A stretch of 64,000 nt of DNA from a virus (IMGVR_UViG_2681813233_000007); one strand, 5' to 3'; positions 23,266 to 55,909 are shown, counted from the first letter of the stretch. The notes: generated by a model from the letters alone, not told the origin. Translations and numbers: made by a program.

Positions 23266-23342
23266 GATGGTGTAGCTCAGTAGGATAGAGCAGCAGCCTT
23301 CTAAGCTGTCGGTCGGTGGTTCGAATCCATCCACCATCGCCA
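23266..23342 (+). tRNA. tRNA-Arg (anticodon UCU)
   Basis: Cloverleaf by hand: acceptor GATGGTG/CACCATC, D-arm GCTC/GAGC, anticodon loop CTTCTAA, T-loop TTCGAAT, encoded CCA. Confidence 0.75.
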
Positions 23343-23344
23343 AT

Positions 23345-23417
23345 GCCGGTTTAGCTCAGTTGGTAGAGCGCCTGCCTTGTAAGCAGGATGTCAGCGGTTC
23401 GAGTCCGTTAACCGGCA
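23345..23417 (+). tRNA. tRNA-Thr (anticodon UGU)
   Basis: Acceptor GCCGGTT/AACCGGC, D-loop AGTTGGTA, anticodon loop CTTGTAA, T-loop TTCGAGT. Confidence 0.8.
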
Positions 23418-23428
23418 CCGACACAACA

Positions 23429-23502
23429 GGTAAGGGTATTTTGCGACGTCGGAGATCGCCGTGCTTGGCAGAGGGTTCGAATCCCTACGAAGTACCCTTA
23501 CC
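23429..23502 (+). ncRNA. Atypical tRNA-like element (possible degenerate tRNA)
   Basis: Has GGTTCGAATCC T-loop and paired termini GGTAAGGG/CCCTTACC, but D and anticodon arms do not fold canonically by hand. Confidence 0.3.
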
Positions 23503-23649
23503 GTTGTGATGAAGTGCAGCTCTTTGAAGCAACCAGAAGATAAGCATCTGGCTTCACAACATAAACCGCATGAACGACCAATAAACGGTAGTCCGTATGG
23601 AGAACACCCCGTTGAGGAAGAGGCCTGGCCGGAACCGTAACCGGCACTA

Positions 23650-23739
23650 CAACGTTGAGAACACTGGCGTAACGGGGTCATATCCCAATCTATGAATAAA
23701 TGTTGCGTTGCAGCGTGACAACCAGTGTTCTCAACATTG
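23650..23739. repeat. 18-bp inverted repeat (one mismatch) with 54-nt loop
   Basis: CAACGTTGAGAACACTGG at 23650-23667 pairs with CCAGTGTTCTCAACATTG at 23722-23739. Confidence 0.7.
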
Positions 23740-23874
23740 TGGTGAATGCGCAGGCTGATGCGCGAAAGACATTGCAGCTATTGCGGAAAAGAGCTGTTCG
23801 GCGGGGCAATTAAACGCCCGTGAGAGTCTGAAATAACCGCAAGCCGGAGATCAGCACCGGTCGCCACAATCAGC

Positions 23875-23961
23875 GGAGAGTAGGGGGCATGGTGCTCAAG
23901 CGGTCTTGAAAACCGTCCCATTGCGCAAGCGATGATGGTTCGATTCCATTACTCTCCGCCA
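23875..23961 (+). tRNA. Long-variable-arm tRNA-like gene, Ser-like (anticodon UGA), atypical D-arm
   Basis: Acceptor GGAGAGT/ACTCTCC, anticodon arm GCGGT-CTTGAAA-ACCGT, T-arm GATGG-TTCGATT-CCATT, encoded CCA; D-stem weak. Confidence 0.45.
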
Positions 23962-24211
23962 TCGCAACGTTAAGAGTATTTGGCTAATTAAGCGAATGCC
24001 GGAAGCAGAACCGGATCATCAAATGCGTACAGGCGTCATCGCCGCCCAGCCAGCCAAGTGCTCTTACCATTGCGGTGAATGCGGCTAAGCGCACGCGGAA
24101 CAGTTAAAACAATCCTCCTTAGTGGTTAAGTCAAACATCCCGGCGTTAATTGTTAACTGGTTAACGTCACCTGGAGGCACCAGGCACCGCAATCTAATAA
24201 AGTTTCAAGCA

Positions 24212-24445
24212 ATGGGGTTTTTGTTGTCAGACTTCAGATATAGATGGTTGTGGAAGGAGAGCCTGTACATAGTGCAGTTATTTCTTCCGCTATTTGTCTG
24301 CTTTGTCATGCTTCCTGAGCTGAAATACGCAATTTCAGACACTTTAAGCACTATCGTTACTTTTGTGTTTTATCTTTACTTTGATTACTTATTGAGCACT
24401 AAAATCAATGAATTATCCGCGGAAATGCAAGGTGGCTGTAAGTGA
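24212..24445 (+). CDS. Small hydrophobic membrane protein (hypothetical)
   Basis: 78 aa from ATG at 24212, in an AT-rich patch; highly hydrophobic. Confidence 0.3.
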   Translation: MGFLLSDFRYRWLWKESLYIVQLFLPLFVCFVMLPELKYAISDTLSTIVTFVFYLYFDYLLSTKINELSAEMQGGCK

Positions 24446-24573
24446 TGGATTTTTGGGCGTTTGCCGATAAGAACCCTGGTTGGACATTTTTATTTTTGCT
24501 GGTGGTTGCATATGGGGTAGAGCAAGCGGCTAAAGCCTTACGCGGTTCTGGCAAAAAGCGTAAGCGGAATTAA
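24445..24573 (+). CDS. 42-aa peptide with a TM segment and basic C-terminus (hypothetical)
   Basis: ATG overlaps the upstream stop (ATGA); MDFWAF...GWTFLFLLVVAYGV...KKRKRN; below the ORF-track size cutoff. Confidence 0.3.
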   Translation: MDFWAFADKNPGWTFLFLLVVAYGVEQAAKALRGSGKKRKRN

Positions 24574-24582
24574 CAGTAATCT

Positions 24583-24658
24583 GGCCCTTTAGCTCAGTGG
24601 TTAGAGCAGGCGACTCATAATCGCACGGTCACCGGTTCAAATCCGGTAGGGGCCACCA
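24583..24658 (+). tRNA. tRNA-Ile2 type (anticodon CAU, lysidine-type AUA reader) or tRNA-Met
   Basis: Near-identical to the E. coli ileX-type sequence as I recall it; anticodon loop CTCATAA, encoded CCA. Confidence 0.8.
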
Positions 24659-26581: not shown

Positions 26582-27942
26582 GTCTGGTTAATTGGGAGGA
26601 GCACCGCGCCCGCTTTATAGCGTTGCGTGAAGAAAAAGGGATCACTGTAAAGGAATACTGTGAGGAGCATGGCCTTAGCTTCAATACAGCCAGAAAGCAT
26701 CTCAATATGAAAAAAAATGAGGTGCGGTCGCAGGTAAAGACAACAAAAAAAAGCACCAAATCACCTGAAAAAAAACGGGCGGGAAGAGCAACAAAAAAGC
26801 TGGAAGAGGGCGCAGAAAAAACAAAATTTACAGAAATTGACAATTCGCAGGGTGCAGGTTCTTTCCGAAGTATGCCAAGAAAGAAAACTCCGGATCATGA
26901 AAGTAATACCAATAATAACAATGAGATAAAAGAATCTGTCAGGAGATCATTGCGCGAAAAAATGGCGAAAATGATCCCCGAAGAAGATAAAAGCGCCCCA
27001 AAAATTGAGGGATCTTCAGCAATGATCCCTGGCGGTGCTGTGCAACGTGCCACATTGCCCACTACGAATGTGGCTCGCGACATGATGAAGAACGGCGCAG
27101 AAGAACACCTGCGGTTAGCAATTCAAATGGCGCAAGAGCGCGCACTTCAGTATCAAAGCATTGTTGATCAGGAGGCCGAACGTCTACAGGCGGAAATAGA
27201 CGCCTTGGGCGATAAAGAGCCAGAAGGAATGCACCCTGGGCAGCGCCTTCTCGGTCTAATCAGTGACGCGGCCTACTACATGAATGATTTTATCAGTAGG
27301 TTGGCAGCTATATATCAGTCCGAACAAAAGCTGCGACAGGGGGATGAAAAGCTTCGTCAGAGCGCTCGCCAGCAAGCATTCAAAGAGGCTGAGGCCAGAG
27401 AAAAACTCGAATTAGCACGCCTACAGGCCGAACAGCGTGGCAAAGAGATTGAATATCGCATTGGCGCTGACGCACGCGCAGCCAGAGTTATCGCCGCCGC
27501 TATACGTATGCGTGAGCGCGAGGAACTGGATGATATCGGTGTTGCTGAATACATCGAGCGCCAGGGGGTCAGCGTCCCGGCTATCCTCGCGGCGCGCGCG
27601 GCGAAAGCTATCACTCTTCTCGAACCACCTGTTTCTGACGTCAATGATGTTGATGATGAACAGCTGGACAAAGAGGCAAGGGAGTTTGCGACGCTTCAGG
27701 CTAACCATCCGCAATGGCTGGCAGAGCGCCGGGCGGATGTGGCAACCATTGTTGAAGAATTGGGGTGCGGAGATTACGACCGCAATGGCGAGCGTAAAGC
27801 TGGAGAATTCGAGGCCAACGACGAAGAGCTGGATATTGACCCTTCGGCAACGGCTGAAATTTACGGTGATTATGATGCATCTGATGCAGGGTATGACGCC
27901 GGAGATGATGATATCGCGATAGAACCGCCGGAGGATGATTAA
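26578..27942 (+). CDS. Terminase small/recognition subunit (PacA-like)
   Basis: 454 aa, translationally coupled to the large subunit; contains a GATC cluster; Lys/Glu-rich. Confidence 0.55.
   Translation: MSLVNWEEHRARFIALREEKGITVKEYCEEHGLSFNTARKHLNMKKNEVRSQVKTTKKSTKSPEKKRAGRATKKLEEGAEKTKFTEIDNSQGAGSFRSMPRKKTPDHESNTNNNNEIKESVRRSLREKMAKMIPEEDKSAPKIEGSSAMIPGGAVQRATLPTTNVARDMMKNGAEEHLRLAIQMAQERALQYQSIVDQEAERLQAEIDALGDKEPEGMHPGQRLLGLISDAAYYMNDFISRLAAIYQSEQKLRQGDEKLRQSARQQAFKEAEAREKLELARLQAEQRGKEIEYRIGADARAARVIAAAIRMREREELDDIGVAEYIERQGVSVPAILAARAAKAITLLEPPVSDVNDVDDEQLDKEAREFATLQANHPQWLAERRADVATIVEELGCGDYDRNGERKAGEFEANDEELDIDPSATAEIYGDYDASDAGYDAGDDDIAIEPPEDD
26893..27027. other. Candidate pac site: cluster of five GATC within 135 bp inside the pacA-like gene
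   Basis: GATC at 26893, 26945, 26973, 27011, 27024; P1 pac is a Dam-regulated cluster of TGATCA/G elements inside pacA. Confidence 0.4.
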
Positions 27943-29450
27943 TGGCTGGAGGGCGCAAGATTAAATGCGTCACCAGCGATCCACGCTGGCGCGATATGGT
28001 AATCAAATACCGCTACAACTTTACCCAGGCTGTTGTCGATATTTTTGGGATGTTCCCCTCCCACCAGCAGCAGCAGATCATTCAGTCCGTGCAGGAAACG
28101 GGGAGTAGGACGACCGTCACGTCCGGACACGGAACGGGGAAGTCGTCCCTTACCGCGATGTTGCTGTTGATTTTCATGATCCTGTTCCCCGATGCCCGTG
28201 TCATCATTGTTGCTAACAAGATAGGCCAGGTAAAAACAGGCGTATTCAAATACGTTAAACAGTATTGGGCGAATGCAGTTAAGCGTCATGGGTGGTTGCA
28301 GACCTATTTTGTCCTCTCTGACACCATGTTTTATGAGCGCTCCCGTAAGGGGATTTGGGAAGTTCTCTGCAAAGGTTATCGACTCGGCAACGAAGAAGCG
28401 CTGGCGGGGGAACACGCGGCACATTTGCTTCTAATTCTGGATGAAGCATCTGGTATATCTGATAAGGCGATCGGCGTAATGACCGGTGCTCTTACTGAAG
28501 AAGATAACCGGATGTTGATGCTATCCCAGCCAACAAGGCCAAGTGGTTATTTTTACGATTCGCACCATTCTCAAGCAAAAACCCCAGACAACCCGAAAGG
28601 GATCTGGACAGCAATTGTTCTTAACTCGGAAGAATCACCGTTCGTCACACCACAATTCATCAAGCAGAAGCTTCTGGAATATGGGGGGCGCGATTCTATT
28701 GAGTACATGGTCAAGGTGCTTGGTCAGTTCCCACGAGAAATTAACGGCTATTTGCTTGGTCGTGATGAATGCGATCGCGCTGCTCGCCGCAAGGTGCTGT
28801 TGGAGAAAAACTGGGGATGGGTGGCAACGGCTGACGTTGGTAATGGGCGAGATAAGTCGGTCCTCAACATCTGCAAGGTATCTGGTCACAGGGATAAGCG
28901 GCGCGTTGTTAACTTTAAGGTAATGGAGATGCCTGGCACTATGGACCCATTGGCCTTTGCTGACTTCATATATAACGAATGTACGCCGGAAAAATACCCG
29001 AATATAACAATCGCGGTTGATGCTGATGGTTTTGGTTCTGATACGTGTGCGCAGTTGGTGCGTCGTGGTGCGAACCCGGTACGTATTCGGTGGGGAAAAC
29101 CCATGTTTGCGAACAAAGACAGGGAGCGATTTGTTAATCAGCGTGCCTACGCAAATATTATGGCGCGAGATGCCATAAAGTCAGGGCGTATGCGGATAGA
29201 CAGTGACCCTAAAACGGCAGAGCAAGCGTCAAAAATCCCCTTTTTACTGAATGAAGAAGGGAAAATGGCGATGATGCGCAAAGAGCACATGCGGCAAAAG
29301 CTAAACATCAAATCGCCTGACCGATGGGATACCTACTGCTTCACTATGCTGGTGGACTATGTGCCTGCTAATGAAGATATTGGTGCCGAAATGGCAACTT
29401 TCCGAGATCAGGTTCTGGCGGATATCGAAATGCCGGATCTGGATATATAA
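27942..29450 (+). CDS. pacB: Terminase large subunit (PacB-like)
   Basis: 502 aa; Walker A SGHGTGKSS, Walker B LLLILDEAS. Confidence 0.8.
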   Translation: MAGGRKIKCVTSDPRWRDMVIKYRYNFTQAVVDIFGMFPSHQQQQIIQSVQETGSRTTVTSGHGTGKSSLTAMLLLIFMILFPDARVIIVANKIGQVKTGVFKYVKQYWANAVKRHGWLQTYFVLSDTMFYERSRKGIWEVLCKGYRLGNEEALAGEHAAHLLLILDEASGISDKAIGVMTGALTEEDNRMLMLSQPTRPSGYFYDSHHSQAKTPDNPKGIWTAIVLNSEESPFVTPQFIKQKLLEYGGRDSIEYMVKVLGQFPREINGYLLGRDECDRAARRKVLLEKNWGWVATADVGNGRDKSVLNICKVSGHRDKRRVVNFKVMEMPGTMDPLAFADFIYNECTPEKYPNITIAVDADGFGSDTCAQLVRRGANPVRIRWGKPMFANKDRERFVNQRAYANIMARDAIKSGRMRIDSDPKTAEQASKIPFLLNEEGKMAMMRKEHMRQKLNIKSPDRWDTYCFTMLVDYVPANEDIGAEMATFRDQVLADIEMPDLDI

Positions 29451-30909: not shown

Positions 30910-31938
30910 ATGAGTGAATTAATTATCTCTGGCAGTTCCGGTGGTTTTCTGCGCAACATTGGCAAAGAGTACCAGGAAGCCGCAGAAAACTTTATGCGGT
31001 TCATGAATGACCAGGGGGCTTATGCGCCGAATACTCTGCGCGACCTCCGGTTGGTGTTTCATTCCTGGGCGCGCTGGTGTCACGCTCGCCAGCTTGCCTG
31101 GTTTCCGATCTCACCAGAAATGGCCCGCGAGTATTTTCTTCAGCTGCATGATGCCGATCTGGCTTCGACCACCATTGATAAGCACTACGCCATGCTGAAC
31201 ATGCTGCTTTCGCATTGTGGCCTTCCGCCACTTTCGGATGATAAAAGTGTTTCTCTGGCTATGCGGCGCATCCGGCGCGAAGCGGCAACTGAAAAAGGCG
31301 AACGAACAGGCCAGGCTATACCGCTTCGGTGGGACGATCTGAAACTGCTCGACGTCCTGTTGTCCAGGTCAGAACGGCTGGTGGACCTGCGCAACCTGGC
31401 TTTTCTCTTTGTTGCATACAATACGCTGATGCGTATGTCGGAAATATCGCGTATTCGTGTAGGTGATCTGGACCAAACAGGTGACACTGTCACGCTACAT
31501 ATTTCACACACGAAGACAATAACGACCGCCGCCGGGCTTGATAAGGTGCTTTCCCGTCGCACTACCGCTGTGCTGAATGACTGGCTGGATGTTTCCGGGC
31601 TTCGCGAGCATCCTGACGCTGTGCTGTTCCCGCCGATACACCGTAGCAATAAGGCCAGGATCACGATAACGCCCCTTACTGCACCTGCAATGGAGAAAAT
31701 ATTCAGCGACGCCTGGGTGTTGCTGAATAAAAGAGATGCTACGCCAAACAAAGGAAGATACCGGACGTGGACCGGGCATAGTGCACGCGTCGGGGCCGCT
31801 ATTGATATGGCTGAAAAGCAGGTGTCTATGGTGGAGATCATGCAGGAAGGAACCTGGAAGAAACCGGAAACACTTATGCGGTATCTTCGCCGTGGCGGCG
31901 TGTCTGTGGGGGCTAATAGCCGCCTGATGGATTTGTAA
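30910..31938 (+). CDS. dre: Tyrosine site-specific recombinase Dre (Cre family)
   Basis: 342 aa; collinear with Cre (WFP..PE, SVSLAMRRIRRE, IRNLAFL..YNTL.R..EI.RIRV.D, W.GHSARVGAA.DMA). Confidence 0.9.
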   Translation: MSELIISGSSGGFLRNIGKEYQEAAENFMRFMNDQGAYAPNTLRDLRLVFHSWARWCHARQLAWFPISPEMAREYFLQLHDADLASTTIDKHYAMLNMLLSHCGLPPLSDDKSVSLAMRRIRREAATEKGERTGQAIPLRWDDLKLLDVLLSRSERLVDLRNLAFLFVAYNTLMRMSEISRIRVGDLDQTGDTVTLHISHTKTITTAAGLDKVLSRRTTAVLNDWLDVSGLREHPDAVLFPPIHRSNKARITITPLTAPAMEKIFSDAWVLLNKRDATPNKGRYRTWTGHSARVGAAIDMAEKQVSMVEIMQEGTWKKPETLMRYLRRGGVSVGANSRLMDL

Positions 31939-31955
31939 ATTAAATTTCTAACACA
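31938..31955 (-). promoter_or_regulatory. Operator-like motif GTGTTAGAAATTTAATTT
   Basis: Motif family member immediately after the dre stop, upstream of the 32012 operon. Confidence 0.5.
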
Positions 31956-32011
31956 TCTTTTTAGATTAACATCTTTGCTGTAAAGTACCCTCGCCTATTT
32001 AGGAGGGTGCT

Positions 32012-32356
32012 TTGCAGAGTCAAATCACGGAATCAAGACGCTTCAAGGTGGATGGTTACACCGTAACCTTCGCCGCTGGTGTTAAGAACAGTCATGCTGT
32101 CGTTGTGTTCGGCATCATGACCGGGCTTGAGGCCGTCCCTGTGTTTACCCTCGAAAAAAACTGGCGAAATCTGGAGGAAGCAGAAAGCTACGTCCGGAAA
32201 GTAACCATCATTGCCGCCGAAAAACTCCTGGCCCACTATCAGGAAAATTATCGCACTATGGTCGAGAAGATTAATCTCGCTTTCACTCGCCCCACTACCG
32301 GCTTTATTGCACCGGATACTAATGCAGGTCGATATCCTGCAAGGGGGCGTCGGTGA
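32012..32356 (+). CDS. Hypothetical protein
   Basis: 114 aa, first gene of a tightly coupled 6-gene operon. Confidence 0.4.
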   Translation: MQSQITESRRFKVDGYTVTFAAGVKNSHAVVVFGIMTGLEAVPVFTLEKNWRNLEEAESYVRKVTIIAAEKLLAHYQENYRTMVEKINLAFTRPTTGFIAPDTNAGRYPARGRR

Positions 32357-32829
32357 AAACTTATTACCCATCTCTGAATTGTTACCCGTCTTCCTATCCA
32401 GAATTATCCGGGAAGCTGTTAGCTCTATTAGCTAAAGCACCTACGGAATGGTTTAAGCCAGTCGTTATCAATCCACACTTCCTGGATTACGGAACTGTTC
32501 GCACTCGTAACGAACTCAAAAACCTACTGGCGCATGGATTCATTCGACACCGTGCCGGGAAAGGCTATCAGTTAGCGATTGCGCCAGAAGAGGCCGTGCG
32601 GCTATTCGCATATCGTGACAGCCAGACAAAAGCTCGGGTAATAGCTCAAATACTTCATAACGGCAGCACCTATGCCCGCCAGTTTGGCGGCGACACGTCG
32701 CAGTTCTTGCGGGCGGTGCGATCGCTGGAGGAGCAAGGAGTTATTGAAAGTTCCTGTCTTCCTGTTCCTACCGTTCCACATATCAAACGTCGGGTTTACA
32801 CCTTCACGCAGAGAGCTAAAAAACAATGA
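32353..32829 (+). CDS. Hypothetical protein, possible winged-helix
   Basis: 158 aa; 4-bp overlap with the upstream ORF. Confidence 0.4.
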   Translation: MKTYYPSLNCYPSSYPELSGKLLALLAKAPTEWFKPVVINPHFLDYGTVRTRNELKNLLAHGFIRHRAGKGYQLAIAPEEAVRLFAYRDSQTKARVIAQILHNGSTYARQFGGDTSQFLRAVRSLEEQGVIESSCLPVPTVPHIKRRVYTFTQRAKKQ

Positions 32830-33320
32830 TTTACGTAAAAGTGAAACGCCTACATCCGGCAGCAAAACTTCCAGCTTATGCCACCTCCGGATCGGCGGCG
32901 ATGGATTTTGAGGCTGTTGAAATAAAACCATGCGTCGATAGCAATGGTGCAATTTCCTCAAGCTGGTGGGTGTACACCGGACTGGCTATGGAGATCCCGC
33001 CCGGCTGGTGTCTGAAACTCTATCCGCGCTCCGGATTGGGCTGCAAAAAACATACTCGCCTGGCTAACTGCGTAGGAATTATCGACTCCGATTATCGCGG
33101 TGAAATCATGGCAAAACTGATTACTGATCCCGGCGGGGAAGGCGTTTGTCTCAAGCCTGGAATGGCTGTCATGCAAGGCATTTTTGAGCGTGTTGAACAA
33201 GTCTCACTAGTCGAGGTTGAGGAACTCAACGAAACGGAACGTGGTGCTGGTGGCTTTGGTAGCACATCGGAAGACCACTTTGAAATCAAGCGCACACCGC
33301 TTCAGTACGCAAAGTTTTAA
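32826..33320 (+). CDS. dut: dUTPase (trimeric dUTP diphosphatase family)
   Basis: Motifs PRSGLG, GIIDSDYRGE and C-terminal RGAGGFGSTS. Confidence 0.75.
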   Translation: MIYVKVKRLHPAAKLPAYATSGSAAMDFEAVEIKPCVDSNGAISSSWWVYTGLAMEIPPGWCLKLYPRSGLGCKKHTRLANCVGIIDSDYRGEIMAKLITDPGGEGVCLKPGMAVMQGIFERVEQVSLVEVEELNETERGAGGFGSTSEDHFEIKRTPLQYAKF

Positions 33321-33334
33321 GCAGAGGAAAGGCT

Positions 33335-34036
33335 ATGAATTACATGACAACGAAAGAGCTTTTTAAGTTCCTTCCCAAATACAAAGCTCACAAAAACGTT
33401 AGTGCATCGAAAATCAAAAATGTTGTTATTTTCGGAGTAACTGCTTCCCCACTTTGGGGCTGCATCGAACTCGTTGAACCAAAAGGGGCAACAGTTTGTG
33501 TTGACGCAATTTTTTTACAAAAACACCGACCAAAAACTGGCGGGTATCTGATCGTTTATGAAAACGGTTATCTGTTCTATGCCCCGGAGAAACCATTTGA
33601 GCAATGCTATGGCCTGGTTAACGACGCCTCCGAAAATGGGGTATCGCTCAGCATTGAAGGTCACAATGGGGTGACATTCATTACAGCCAGGGACGTAACT
33701 ATTTCTGCTGGCGGTATCGCTACTCTACAAGAAGAAATCGACCTTGAAGCAGCCGACTTTTCTGACGCGCTGATGTGGCTGAAGGATGGCAAGAAAGTTG
33801 CTCGACGCGGGTGGAACGGCGAAAACCAATTCTGCTGGCTGGTTCCTGACAAACAGGGTGCTTCAAGACTAACCCCTATAAAACATGCCGCAAACGGAGA
33901 GCTTGAAATCAATTTCGACTCTCCTCTTGCTCCTTATGGTGCGCATTTCGTTTTGAAAAATGCACAAGGTGTAGTTGTTCCATGGATGCCTTCTGTAGGT
34001 GACCTGCTGGCATGTGACTGGTTTGTAGTGGAGTGA
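33335..34036 (+). CDS. Two-domain protein with C-terminal DUF2829 (Tad2-like) domain
   Basis: C-terminal ~90 aa ALMWLKDGKKVARRGWNG...VPWMPSVGDLLACDWFVVE fits the DUF2829 pattern as I recall it; N-terminal ~140 aa unknown. Confidence 0.5.
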   Translation: MNYMTTKELFKFLPKYKAHKNVSASKIKNVVIFGVTASPLWGCIELVEPKGATVCVDAIFLQKHRPKTGGYLIVYENGYLFYAPEKPFEQCYGLVNDASENGVSLSIEGHNGVTFITARDVTISAGGIATLQEEIDLEAADFSDALMWLKDGKKVARRGWNGENQFCWLVPDKQGASRLTPIKHAANGELEINFDSPLAPYGAHFVLKNAQGVVVPWMPSVGDLLACDWFVVE

Positions 34037-34042
34037 TTTAAC

Positions 34043-34849
34043 GTGGAAAATACTAAAGCAATTCAATACCGCTTGCGTAATGGCCTGCTGGTGGCTGTTA
34101 ACGCCGACATGTCACTGCCGTTTGACACGATTGAACGCACCATAATGACGTATCTCGGCTTTAATGAAGAACTGAATGAAGAGCATGGCGTAGCTATATG
34201 GAGTGATGCAGACAGCGGCGTTCGTCGTTACATCACCGCCAGGGGCAAAGACTACTCTCTGGAAGAACTGTTTGCCCTTGCGCAGTCTTTCGAATGTGTA
34301 GCATTAGACCTGTTTAATGATCCTGCTATAGCGCAACGACTTATACGCGAGCTTGGGCTATCCGTTACACCAATTATCTTTAAAAATGGCAGCCTGACTG
34401 GCACATGGCGCGTAGAACGCATATCAAACTACCTTCCATATAACCGACAGTTAAATGGAGTAATCTCCGGCGTTAATCAGCCCGTAGCATGTGAAAATGT
34501 AAACCTGGTTGTCGCTGTTTTGGCAACCGCATGTCGTGTTATCGGTTTGGCTAAACAGGCATTTATTCATTTCCCAAATGGTGCAGAAGGTAGCGCAGAG
34601 ATTATCGCGTGTGATTTCGAATTTACCTGGATGCTACGCGAATATCTGGACCAAACAGTATTCCGTGCCGAAGAACTGGATATGTATATCACGTCAACGA
34701 TTCCAGACGATGTGCGAGCTGAAGCAATCGCTACAGCCAGGGCGAAATGCCGTGCGGCGATTGCAGAACAGGCCAAAGAAGAACAGTCCGATGAAGTCGC
34801 GGCAGATGTGGAGGCAGAGGTAGCGGAGGATGCTGATGCTGACGCCTAA
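34043..34849 (+). CDS. Hypothetical protein with acidic C-terminal tail
   Basis: 268 aa; C-terminus EEQSDEVAADVEAEVAEDADADA. Confidence 0.4.
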   Translation: MENTKAIQYRLRNGLLVAVNADMSLPFDTIERTIMTYLGFNEELNEEHGVAIWSDADSGVRRYITARGKDYSLEELFALAQSFECVALDLFNDPAIAQRLIRELGLSVTPIIFKNGSLTGTWRVERISNYLPYNRQLNGVISGVNQPVACENVNLVVAVLATACRVIGLAKQAFIHFPNGAEGSAEIIACDFEFTWMLREYLDQTVFRAEELDMYITSTIPDDVRAEAIATARAKCRAAIAEQAKEEQSDEVAADVEAEVAEDADADA

Positions 34850-35936
34850 AAACATCACCGAATTACCAGAGTGGAGAGAGCTGGTAAGCAAATATAGCCA
34901 TGACTGGGCATTAGCAGCAGAAGAGTTGATGGGTGTTAAGTTAACCCACCAGCAAAAGCTAATTGTTGAGGCGATTCAACAAAAAGGTTCAGCAGTCAGC
35001 GTCACCACTCCTGAAGGGATAGGCCAAAAGACGGTTATCGCTATAATTAGTATTCTTTATACAATCCTGATGCCTGAGTCTAAAACGGTTATTGTTTCCC
35101 CAAAGTTCTATAATTGTCGCAGGCAAGTTATCCAATACATAAGTACGTATTGGGATAGAGTCAGTAACAGAATCCCATTGCTGGGAGAATATTTTAAAGT
35201 CGATGGAAACGGCATCAATCATCGTTACCGGGAATATTGGGGCTGCGAAATTAAGCCATATCACCGAAATTATGAGGAAGGTTTCGGTGGATATTATGCT
35301 GAACATCTTTTAATCATTGTTACGGAGGCGGCTCTTGCTGGCGATCGGCTATTCAGCATGTTAAGAGCATCGTTAGTAAGTGACGATTCACGTATACTTT
35401 TAATGTCCGCTCCTTCAGAGGAGGAGCATGGACACTTTTACGATTCCCATCATGGTCGTGCTAAATCAGAAGAAAATCCATGTGGTATTTATACAGCCAT
35501 CAAGCTGAACGCAGAAGATACCCCCATTATTTCTCAAGGTTATCTTGATAACATTGCAGAAATATATGGTGGTAAAAACAGCGATTACTACCGTCGTATG
35601 ATTCTTGGTGAGTTTCCTGGTATTAGGGAGGCTGTTCTTGAATCAGATATGCCGAAGACAATGCGCTTTTCGATGCCTGATGGTAGTGAATGGATAATGC
35701 CATTACGAGTGATAGCCCGGCATCATGCACAGCACCACGCCAAAAAACATGGCGTTACAACATTGGAGTGGTTGAAATCGCACACCATTCCACTCTTCAC
35801 TGCAGATCACAATGCTATCGTTGAGTGGGCAAAAACAATTCCGTGGGAGAATGTTGCTGAATACGCCCACATGCTAAAACCGCCGAAAGACAGGCAAGAA
35901 ATTAGCTGGCTGACAGCAGAAAAAATCATTGAGTGA
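34830..35936 (+). CDS. Terminase large-subunit ATPase-domain paralog, truncated, degenerate Walker motifs
   Basis: Collinear with the PacB-like N-terminal ~360 aa (GHFYDSHHGRAK vs GYFYDSHHSQAK) but Walker A is GIGQKT and Walker B is LLIIVTEAA; no C-terminal nuclease domain. Confidence 0.6.
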   Translation: MLMLTPKNITELPEWRELVSKYSHDWALAAEELMGVKLTHQQKLIVEAIQQKGSAVSVTTPEGIGQKTVIAIISILYTILMPESKTVIVSPKFYNCRRQVIQYISTYWDRVSNRIPLLGEYFKVDGNGINHRYREYWGCEIKPYHRNYEEGFGGYYAEHLLIIVTEAALAGDRLFSMLRASLVSDDSRILLMSAPSEEEHGHFYDSHHGRAKSEENPCGIYTAIKLNAEDTPIISQGYLDNIAEIYGGKNSDYYRRMILGEFPGIREAVLESDMPKTMRFSMPDGSEWIMPLRVIARHHAQHHAKKHGVTTLEWLKSHTIPLFTADHNAIVEWAKTIPWENVAEYAHMLKPPKDRQEISWLTAEKIIE

Positions 35937-35943
35937 TAGTAGG

Positions 35944-35974
35944 AAGCCCGCCTGGTTGAGCGGGCTTCTTTTCA
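35944..35974. terminator. Bidirectional rho-independent terminator
   Basis: GAAGCCCGC-ctggttga-GCGGGCTTC followed by TTTT, between the terminase paralog and convergent doc. Confidence 0.65.
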
Positions 35975-36352
35975 AATATTGGAACCATATAGTTCACGTA
36001 GTTTTTCCGCTACTGAAGATACGGGGATTTCACCAGTTGCAGCCCCCACCGCAAGTTCCACCAGCACGGGAGAATCATATACCTGTATACCGTTACGGCG
36101 TAGAAATAGCAGCGCACTGTTTAGCGCGGTACGCTTATTGGCATCATTGAATATATGCCCTCTCGCAGTAGCCACCAGGTAGGTTGCGGAGACTTCGAAA
36201 AGGTCGGTGATCTCTTCGTAGGCAACTCTGGCCTGAACTCTCCCGATAATGGCCTCTGCCCTACCCGGATCTGACATTCCCGGCAGGCCGCCGTAGCGGC
36301 TTATATTCGCATCATGAAGCGCAATAAGTTCTTCCGGTGATATATGCCTCAT
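35972..36352 (-). CDS. doc: Doc toxin (Fic-family kinase)
   Basis: 126 aa, near-identical to P1 Doc as I recall it ([22 protein letters not shown]...). Confidence 0.95.
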
Positions 36353-36573
36353 TATCGGTTAACCAGTTCCTTGTTGGTGGAGTCCAGGGTGTCAAACAGG
36401 GATGCAAATTCAGCATCCAGCGCCGCCTTTTTGTAGGCTTCGAAAGTAGCCTTGCTGACAATTACTGCTGGTTCACGGCCTCTGCGGGTGATTTCAACCT
36501 CTTCCCCGGCTTCAACATTGTTGAGCAATTCAGAAAGGTTGCCGCGCGCGGTACGGAAGTTAATGGACTGCAT
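36352..36573 (-). CDS. phd: Phd antitoxin
   Basis: [15 protein letters not shown]... matches P1 Phd as I recall it; overlaps the doc start. Confidence 0.9.
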
Positions 36574-36645
36574 AAACACCTCGTGTACTCGTTATGTGTA
36601 CACAATCATAAACTTCACAGGCATAAAGCACCAGCACTTTGCAGC

Positions 36646-55180: not shown

Positions 55181-55909
55181 TCATTTTTTTGAAAGATCAA
55201 CTCCAGTATTATCAAACAAACTGGAAATATCAGACACCAATTTATTAAAATGCTTGTCATCATTATAGAATGATGTGCTTTTTATAGCGACTATAAAATC
55301 ACATAAATCTTGCGGAGATTCAATGCTAACCCCCTTATTTTTATATAGTTCAATAATACTGCCAACATCAGTATGCAATAGTTTTATCGCGCCACAAATT
55401 TCTCGCTGTTTCGTAACCAAGTCATTAAGTTTATTTTCATTTTCATCTAAGATTTGTTTTGAATATTTAGCGTCATTGGTTGCTTGATTTAACTTTGTTT
55501 TCTTTCTTTGCAATTCTATTCTTTTATCATAATCAGCAACTTCATCTAAATATCTTATTTCAGTGTATAATTTACTTGTTAGCTTAGATATCGTCAGTGT
55601 GAGAATAGGAGCTAATACAGATGCAAATACTCCATAAATAAATGGGATTACAACGTGACAAACCCACGGGGGTACAATCCAATTATCAAAGAACGGTACA
55701 TTACCACCAACAAAAACAATAGATAATGTATATAGGATGTCGTCCTTTGACTTTAATATAATTAAAATATCCTTCCAGTTAAGGATTAGAAAAGAAATGA
55801 CAACATATGCAAAAACCTTGTTAAATATTTTATCTTTTATTATTTCAGAAAATGATTTTAGTTCTGTTTCATTTATAGACGAATTATCTTTAACTTTTTC
55901 TGACATCAT
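55181..55909 (-). CDS. Membrane protein with cytoplasmic coiled coil; candidate exclusion/abortive-infection effector
   Basis: 242 aa; 2-3 N-terminal TM helices then coiled coil; very AT-rich gene; last gene of the higB-higA-orf66 leftward string. Confidence 0.5.
   Translation of the reverse strand: MMSEKVKDNSSINETELKSFSEIIKDKIFNKVFAYVVISFLILNWKDILIILKSKDDILYTLSIVFVGGNVPFFDNWIVPPWVCHVVIPFIYGVFASVLAPILTLTISKLTSKLYTEIRYLDEVADYDKRIELQRKKTKLNQATNDAKYSKQILDENENKLNDLVTKQREICGAIKLLHTDVGSIIELYKNKGVSIESPQDLCDFIVAIKSTSFYNDDKHFNKLVSDISSLFDNTGVDLSKK

Follow-up and report, generated by a model that had tools for sequence, protein, structure and literature searches.

Few phage proteins are as well conserved as the large subunits of terminases, which bacterial innate immune receptors target directly. 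The locus described here raises the question of why a phage-plasmid would carry, beside its working terminase, a second terminase-like protein that has lost its motifs for ATP hydrolysis. The locus lies in a 64,000-nucleotide stretch of viral DNA (IMGVR_UViG_2681813233_000007; "the window" hereafter means this whole stretch), where six co-directional genes on the + strand form a block (31937-35973) that runs from an operator copy to a hairpin terminator. A 4.3-kb query around these genes matched E. coli plasmid pRHB39-C21_3 (CP057047) and its relatives at 100% identity, and phage D6 at 97% identity over its first 3 kb only. Therefore, the window represents a D6-like phage-plasmid. The six genes form a conserved accessory operon of D6-like phage-plasmids of E. 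coli and Salmonella, and the protein in question, a pseudo-terminase, is the product of its last gene (gene 6).

Gene 6 is collinear with the ATPase domain of the co-resident PacB-like protein (27942-29450), with which it shares 34% identity over 258 amino acids (E = 3e-52), and the homology ends near residue 264, at the start of the PacB nuclease domain. The Walker A region reads GIGQKT in gene 6 versus GTGKSS in PacB, and the Walker B region reads LLIIVTEAA versus LLLILDEAS. Likewise, the position of the coupling motif holds MSAPSE versus SQPT(R) in the PacB group, and GGYY is found at the position of LAGEH. A preliminary description of this DNA, made from the sequence alone, had proposed a PacB-collinear paralog with degenerate Walker motifs (no lysine and no aspartate) and no nuclease domain; pairwise alignment recovers each of these features, and the degeneracy extends well beyond this one copy.

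This extension comes from an alignment of 12 gene 6 paralogs with 12 true PacB-like terminases. The motifs GK[ST], DEAS, SQPT-R, and LAGEH are invariant in all 12 terminases, whereas none of the 12 paralogs has kept the Walker A Lys, the Walker B Asp/Glu, SQPT(R), or GEH, and the replacements vary freely. The Walker A Lys position is occupied by Q, H, R, T, E, M, C, or I; the Walker B Asp is gone from every paralog, and the Glu position varies among E, D, N, H, and Q. Common to both groups are the N-terminal helices, a QQ motif, FY(D/E)SHH, L(N/S)AE(D/E)SP, and YGG. In gene 6 the last three read FYDSHH, LNAEDSP, and YGG, and the P-loop glycines are retained as well. By these alignments, gene 6 belongs to a family of pseudoenzymes and is no isolated mutant copy. 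Because the motifs for ATP hydrolysis are lost and the nuclease domain is missing, the protein is predicted neither to translocate nor to cut DNA, which supports the non-translocating paralog suggested earlier.

Sequence searches of gene 6 against Pfam, NCBIfam, PADLOC, and PDB returned only a weak terminase signal and nothing else of significance, and its family corresponds to PHROG 5902, annotated as "unknown function." Structure comparison is more informative for the N-terminal part. The predicted model, which is confident over residues 10-190 only, has ATPase domains of terminase large subunits (TerL) as its top Foldseek matches (7ks4, 3cpe, 2o0j, and 4idh; E about 1e-6), and it matches the ATPase domains of P74-26, T4 gp17, and Sf6 TerL. 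The last ~100 amino acids do not align to PacB and have no Pfam family, and they match the C-terminal part of phrog_17928. This domain also occurs alone, in phage proteins of 100-158 amino acids (P0089, P0132, P0143, and P0149) that sit in arrays of small phage genes. Furthermore, an exhaustive search found relatives of ~260 amino acids without the C-terminal domain and one relative with a different C-terminal domain.

A protein with these features might be nothing more than a functionless, decaying duplicate of pacB, as its catalytic motifs are all gone and vary freely. Full-length, intact copies were found in 162 plasmids. About 44 of these are D6-like and have the same operon as the window, and about 120 are P1-like and carry gene 6 paired with isaA between ssb and hxr. 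The ratio of nonsynonymous to synonymous substitution rates (dN/dS) for gene 6 falls in the ranges 0.15-0.49 and 0.08-0.49, and gene 6 is therefore under purifying selection. In addition, the non-catalytic motifs are invariant across members that are only 35-50% identical, and a conserved new C-terminal domain has been gained. Decay is effectively refuted by these conservation data.

The two halves of gene 6 have evolved differently. We compared the window with two D6-like plasmids whose backbones are ~99% identical to it. PacB is 100% identical (all 502 amino acids in one plasmid and the 254 amino acids available in the other), and the pacA region is about 98% identical. Only two islands diverge. 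Gene 4 is one of them, and the other begins in the 3' tail of gene 5 and extends over the dead ATPase domain of gene 6. Between these plasmids the dead ATPase domain has 53% amino acid identity, a synonymous divergence (dS) of 1.46, and a dN/dS of 0.27, whereas in the same comparison the C-terminal domain is 98% identical, with a dS of 0.1 and a dN/dS of 0.08. Among D6-like plasmids generally, the C-terminal domain is 97-98% identical (dN/dS of 0.08-0.19). Independently of the working terminase, the terminase-like half of gene 6 is being exchanged or diversified.

This pattern bears on the possibility that gene 6 modulates its own terminase. Such a protein would bind PacA, the pac-PacA complex, or the portal, and, being made early, would delay or restrict pac cleavage and the start of headful packaging until the late phase of infection. 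Its homology extends over the ATPase domain of PacB in full, with the N-terminal helices, which in terminases often hold contacts with the small subunit. The motifs kept are surface motifs only, whereas those of the active site are gone, and early expression from behind an operator (see below) would precede that of the late genes pacA and pacB. However, there is no co-variation: the ATPase domain is at 53% identity where the cognate PacB is at 100% and the pacA region at ~98%, and the distance to either PacB is the same for D6-like as for P1-like paralogs (34-35%). Moreover, D6 and P1 both lack gene 6 and package normally. Because PacB is identical while the dead domain has diverged so far, dedicated regulation of the resident terminase becomes less likely, and we consider it improbable.

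A diversified terminase-like domain could instead be directed at others. Gene 6 might be a dominant-negative subunit that poisons the packaging motor of competing P1- or D6-like elements or of satellites, with the allele of the N-terminal domain setting the target. The N-terminal alleles have diversified on constant backbones, at least five allele classes exist among the plasmids, and copies are found in both P1-like and D6-like elements, all of which would fit. On the other hand, a C1-repressed gene would not be expressed in lysogens, where exclusion would matter, the cognate terminase would have to be immune, and the idea that gene 6 joins terminase oligomers has no support. We regard this explanation as quite unlikely.

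The other hypervariable island is gene 4 (about 33400-34000), where nucleotide identity falls to 44-85% between near-identical plasmids. Residues 141-232 of its product match the Pfam Tad2-like family PF11195 at 76.3 bits (cutoff, 25), in agreement with the Tad2-like DUF2829 domain named in the preliminary description, and gene 4 can be aligned with the solved Tad2 proteins 8v3e, 9eib, 8wjd, 8kbi, and 8sme along their entire length (phmmer E values down to 2e-13). In the Tad2 of SPO1 (Gp34.65), the residues that contact glycocyclic ADP-ribose (gcADPR) are W25, N26, W73, and D79. Gene 4 keeps equivalents of all four, at the GWNG, PW, and GD positions of the 8sme alignment. Most likely, gene 4 has the role of Tad2 and sequesters gcADPR, the signal molecule of Thoeris.

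The same protein had been described as a DUF2829 fusion. The fusion is present, but it is the normal form of an enterobacterial family and not a one-off. Every full-length homolog has an N-terminal domain of ~135 amino acids and of unknown function joined to DUF2829 (the few entries that lack it are short or partial), and the family comprises about 60 clusters at 90% identity, whose proteins are 206-233 amino acids long. Its most variable part is the central loop of the Tad2 domain. The D6 copy is an internally deleted form of 146 amino acids. None of the six operon proteins has a significant match to a PADLOC defence system.

The surroundings of gene 6 differ between lineages. The position between ssb and hxr in the P1-like carriers corresponds to isaA-IS1-isaB of P1, a recognized variable region (RD-2) of P1-like plasmids, and it adjoins hxr-ddrB-ddrA-darA, genes annotated as antirestriction genes in a published table. 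In more distant elements, the gene that precedes the gene 6 homolog is one for a DnaB-type helicase, a radical-SAM gene, or one for a homolog of Ref, which overlaps it by 4 bp. In P1, isaA is non-essential by CRISPR interference. The module is dispensable, as neither D6 nor P1 has gene 6 and isaA of P1 is non-essential.

Two of the distant elements are worth recording individually. On a 63-kb Logan contig (SRR15600246; L006 1869-2261 and 4610-7098), a full-length homolog with 38% identity to gene 6 lies directly 3' of a DnaB-type helicase gene and without IsaA, and the region also encodes a Pfam "Sequestin" protein (PF21825). On an 84-kb Logan contig (SRR34349115; L009 5336-6792), a homolog of the RecA-dependent nuclease Ref (PF16786) overlaps a 263-amino-acid stand-alone dead-terminase paralog by 4 bp. 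A tyrosine recombinase is encoded a few kilobases upstream of this pair, which corresponds in relative position to ref-mat of P1.

These neighborhoods suggest another role, in which gene 6 and IsaA would serve as early accessories of DNA replication or recombination, gene 6 being a non-hydrolyzing binding module for partners such as Ssb, a helicase, Ref, or nuclease-type proteins. Its neighbors across lineages (ssb-isaA, the DnaB-type helicase, and the overlapping Ref homolog) are consistent with such a role. A confident IsaA model (predicted local distance difference test score, 83) gave no more than weak nuclease-like matches, to Hjc/restriction-endonuclease-like folds, and may point the same way. 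We judge a replication or recombination role to be distinctly unlikely.

The timing of expression enters into several of these arguments. The preliminary description had placed an operator-like motif at the start of the operon, and this motif (core ATTTCTAACACA at 31944-31955) proves to be one of 16 copies. When TTTTCTAACAYA was counted across the whole window with up to 1 mismatch, 16 matches were found versus 0.76 expected by shuffling, and none of 100 shuffles reached 16. The copies have in common a 5' extension, AATTA(A/G), giving the dispersed asymmetric motif (A)AATTA(A/G)TTTTCTAACA(C/T)A. Inverted pairs at about 26084/26101, 43496/43520, and 60266/60288 resemble the bivalent operators of P1. 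The neighboring repressor, of 345 amino acids, is a remote homolog of P1 C1 (21% identity over 240 amino acids, E = 2e-8). The window therefore has the hallmarks of P1-type immunity: an asymmetric operator of ~17 bp in many copies, one at the start of the operon, and a C1 homolog nearby. In P1, C1 operators precede ref, mat, and ssb. Presumably, the 16-copy motif is the operator set of a D6-type C1 repressor and marks the early regulon of the element. Near the operator, weak sigma-70 candidates can be read by eye (TTAAAT-16-TAGATT and TTTAGA-16-TAAAGT). The strong terminator claimed for the other end of the operon was also recovered. It consists of GAAGCCCGC, 8 nucleotides, and GCGGGCTTC followed by TTTTC, which corresponds to a 9-bp G+C-rich stem, an 8-nucleotide loop, and a T run, and part of this hairpin is listed by a terminator scan.

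Taking these observations together, we tentatively favor the explanation that gene 6 is a non-catalytic terminase mimic used in conflict or counter-defence. Inactivation of the C1-type repressor would switch on the operon early, ahead of the late terminase genes. Gene 4 would then sequester gcADPR, and gene 6 would act purely by binding, mimicking the terminase large subunit so as to occupy or mislead something that recognizes terminases, whether a host sensor of the Avs1-3 type or a rival element's packaging machinery. The C-terminal domain would supply a constant function, such as anchoring or blocking assembly. That gene 6 works by binding is suggested because catalysis is lost, non-catalytic surfaces are kept, and a conserved domain has been added. 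A role in conflict is preferred to regulation of the resident terminase because gene 6 does not co-vary with PacB, is dispensable, occupies variable sites rich in anti-defence genes, and shares an operon with an equally hypervariable Tad2-family gene. The preliminary description had spoken of an accessory or counter-defence module that could not be placed in any described system. The Tad2 contact residues, the hypervariability of genes 4 and 6, and the dispensability lend support to the first part of this statement. The second part does not hold: D6 already has five of the six genes annotated as orf117-orf113, to which one extra gene is added here, the block is present in many D6-like plasmids, and the pair of IsaA and gene 6 recurs in P1-like phages at the isaA-IS1-isaB variable region.

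The host sensors offer one specific form of this explanation. Avs1-4 bind directly to the large terminase subunit and the portal, whose folds they recognize (PMC12803255). Gene 6 could thus be an early decoy that binds STAND (signal transduction ATPases with numerous domains) sensors of the Avs1-3 type, with its C-terminal domain preventing activation and its variable ATPase domain tracking sensor diversity. This specific form we hold to be very doubtful.

Several points weigh against a mimic used in conflict, and against the Avs decoy in particular. A mimic bound to an Avs sensor should normally trigger it, save where oligomerization is blocked, and that step is speculative. In the Avs3-terminase structure, the contacts reportedly include the ATPase and nuclease active sites, which gene 6 lacks. 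No PADLOC or anti-defence family matches gene 6, and the literature searched holds no precedent for an inactive or decoy terminase paralog. In other lineages the genes preceding gene 6 serve DNA metabolism (ssb, a DnaB-like helicase, and a Ref-like nuclease), neighbors that fit a role in replication or recombination equally well, and the hypervariable pattern could reflect recombination with diverged alleles and no selection. The binding partner is itself a proposal. As for expression, a promoter scan at the start of the operon found no sigma-70 site at its threshold, and the terminator scan found none after dre. Because there is neither a strong sigma-70 promoter beside the operator nor a terminator after dre, C1 control of the operon can only be inferred.

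Regardless of the role that gene 6 plays, a dead terminase ATPase family is kept intact in more than 160 phage-plasmids, where it diversifies apart from the working terminase and in an operon with a Tad2-family protein. We found no description of a pseudo-terminase family in the literature searched, and neither the family nor its two-part architecture and allelic pattern seems to have been described before. If gene 6 is a mimic or decoy, it would represent a novel strategy of phages against pattern-recognition immunity. If it is an Avs decoy, it would be the first decoy of a conserved phage protein that acts as a pathogen-associated molecular pattern ("PAMP"), in one operon with a Thoeris sponge. 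If it is a packaging regulator, it would bear on P1-type transduction, which is relevant to the spread of resistance genes by phage-plasmids.

The operon and its surroundings (Table 1) follow the order lpa, pacA, pacB, the C1-type repressor, dre, the six genes, and convergent doc-phd. The six + strand open reading frames (ORFs) after dre had been recognized in the preliminary description, as had their tight coupling. The coupling stands, but overlaps occur at only three of the five junctions. Gene 2 overlaps both gene 1 and gene 3 by 4 bp, gene 4 is separated from gene 3 by 14 bp and from gene 5 by 6 bp, and gene 6 overlaps gene 5 by 20 bp, or by 14 bp when ATG 34836 is taken as its start.

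Table 1. Positions, in the window, of the operon, its control elements, and the copies of the operator motif.
Feature	Position	Strand	Remarks
dre	30910-31938	+	5' of the six-gene operon
D6-type C1 operator copy, AAATTAA-ATTTCTAACACA	31937-31955	+	overlaps the dre stop codon, 5' of the operon
Gene 1, D6 orf117 homolog, 114 amino acids	32012-32356	+	TTG start 5 nucleotides after AGGAGG
Gene 2, D6 orf116 homolog, 158 amino acids	32353-32829	+	97% identity to D6 orf116
Gene 3, trimeric-type dUTPase, 164 amino acids	32826-33320	+	Pfam and NCBIfam
Gene 4, N-terminal domain and C-terminal Tad2-family (DUF2829) domain, 233 amino acids	33335-34036	+	Pfam
Gene 5, IsaA homolog, 268 amino acids, acidic tail lineage-specific	34043-34849	+	P1 IsaA homology
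Gene 6 (whole), pseudo-terminase	34830 or ATG 34836 to 35936	+	database homologs start at 34836
Gene 6, N-terminal degenerate terminase ATPase domain, residues 1 to ~265	34830-35624	+	PacB homology
Gene 6, C-terminal domain of ~100 amino acids, residues ~270-368	35637-35936	+	in place of the nuclease domain
Intrinsic terminator	35943-35973	+	between the operon and convergent doc
Motif copies	5817, 8642, 9840, 19740, 20783, 22032, 22188, 26101
Further motif copies	30534, 31944, 43496, 47975, 48634, 52400, 60266, 60288

The dUTPase, the homologs of D6 orf116 and orf117, and IsaA are an ordinary and already annotated part of the operon. Gene 1 is 98% identical to D6 orf117 and matches phrog_1968, and gene 2 matches phrog_6669, both of unknown function; neither protein has a match in Pfam, NCBIfam, or PDB. 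The dUTPase proposed earlier for gene 3 is borne out by the Pfam dUTPase model (E = 1.7e-14) and by two NCBIfam models whose curated cutoffs it exceeds (the equivalog NF001862, 121.6 bits versus 103; TIGR00576, 119.1 versus 102.6). Gene 3 aligns end to end with solved dUTPases, the alignment with 8y1q includes the motifs PRSGL, IDxDYRGE, and RGxGGFGST, and the enzyme is apparently intact. Gene 5 had been described as an acidic protein. It is a full-length member of the IsaA family (48% identity to P1 IsaA over 262 amino acids; phrog_2326, E = 9e-137), and its acidic tail does exist but is restricted to the E. coli D6-like subgroup and so is not a feature of the family.

Some observations on annotation and on other parts of the window are added here. 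The start of gene 1 is annotated differently among plasmids, as a 309-nucleotide gene from GTG 32048 (Prokaryotic Genome Annotation Pipeline [PGAP], CP057047) or as a 345-nucleotide gene from the TTG after AGGAGG (D6 and other plasmids), and pacA (window 26962-27942) is annotated with 981 nucleotides in CP057047 versus 1365 nucleotides in CP088573 and NZ_CP076307. Four tRNA genes (Arg-TCT, Thr-TGT, Ser-TGA, and Met-CAT) lie on the + strand at 23266-24658, and four tRNA genes have also been reported in a paper on Salmonella D6-like prophages. On the - strand at 55181-55909, a 242-amino-acid ORF without a Pfam match lies in the kilobase of lowest G+C content (33% versus ~48% overall) and perhaps represents cargo gained recently. 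A second "antitoxin PHD" gene is annotated a few genes past phd-doc, at 36352-36579 in the window and at 11324-11608 in L002.

Other candidate relatives of gene 6 were tried and rejected. P1 Mat ("maturation control," ~250 amino acids, encoded after ref) was considered as a diverged pseudo-terminase, and BLASTP found no similarity between it and gene 6, the short paralog P0025, or PacB. P1 IsaB was considered as a remnant of gene 6 split by IS1, and a tblastn search of the P1 isaA-IS1-isaB region with gene 6 returned nothing. Finally, gene 6 is not a conserved D6 gene, as D6 has pdcA at this place.

Among the known systems that resemble the operon is D6 orf117-orf113, which has genes 1, 2, 3, and 5 at 96-98% identity, with their order and their position after dre unchanged. 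D6 differs in its shortened DUF2829 protein (146 amino acids) and in having no gene 6, with pdcA following doc instead. The P1 region isaA-IS1-isaB likewise has a counterpart, in that P1-like phages without IS1 carry the same pair of isaA and pseudo-terminase gene between ssb and hxr. In the window, however, the pair is joined to the dre-dut-DUF2829 operon beside doc, and P1 itself lacks the pseudo-terminase and has an unrelated isaB. With P1 cre-c8-ref-mat, the operon shares its position after a site-specific recombinase and the C1-type operators before its genes, but neither gene 6 nor PacB is similar to Mat, and the operon has no Ref homolog. The equation of this position with cra/ref/mat of P1 is thus correct in part, since ref and mat (after c8) do follow cre, but cra lies upstream of it.

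Gene 4 resembles Tad2 in passing the Pfam threshold, in aligning over the full length, and in keeping the four contact residues. It differs in its length of 233 amino acids, its extra N-terminal domain of ~135 amino acids, and its hypervariable central loop. Gene 6 resembles PacB and other large terminase subunits (T4 gp17, P74-26, and Sf6 gp2) in ~260 amino acids of collinear homology, in its predicted ATPase fold, and in its non-catalytic motifs. It differs from them in having neither the catalytic motifs nor the RNase-H-like nuclease domain and in its new C-terminal domain of ~100 amino acids. Moreover, PacB is encoded in the late lpa-pacA-pacB unit, whereas gene 6 belongs to an early accessory operon and is dispensable.

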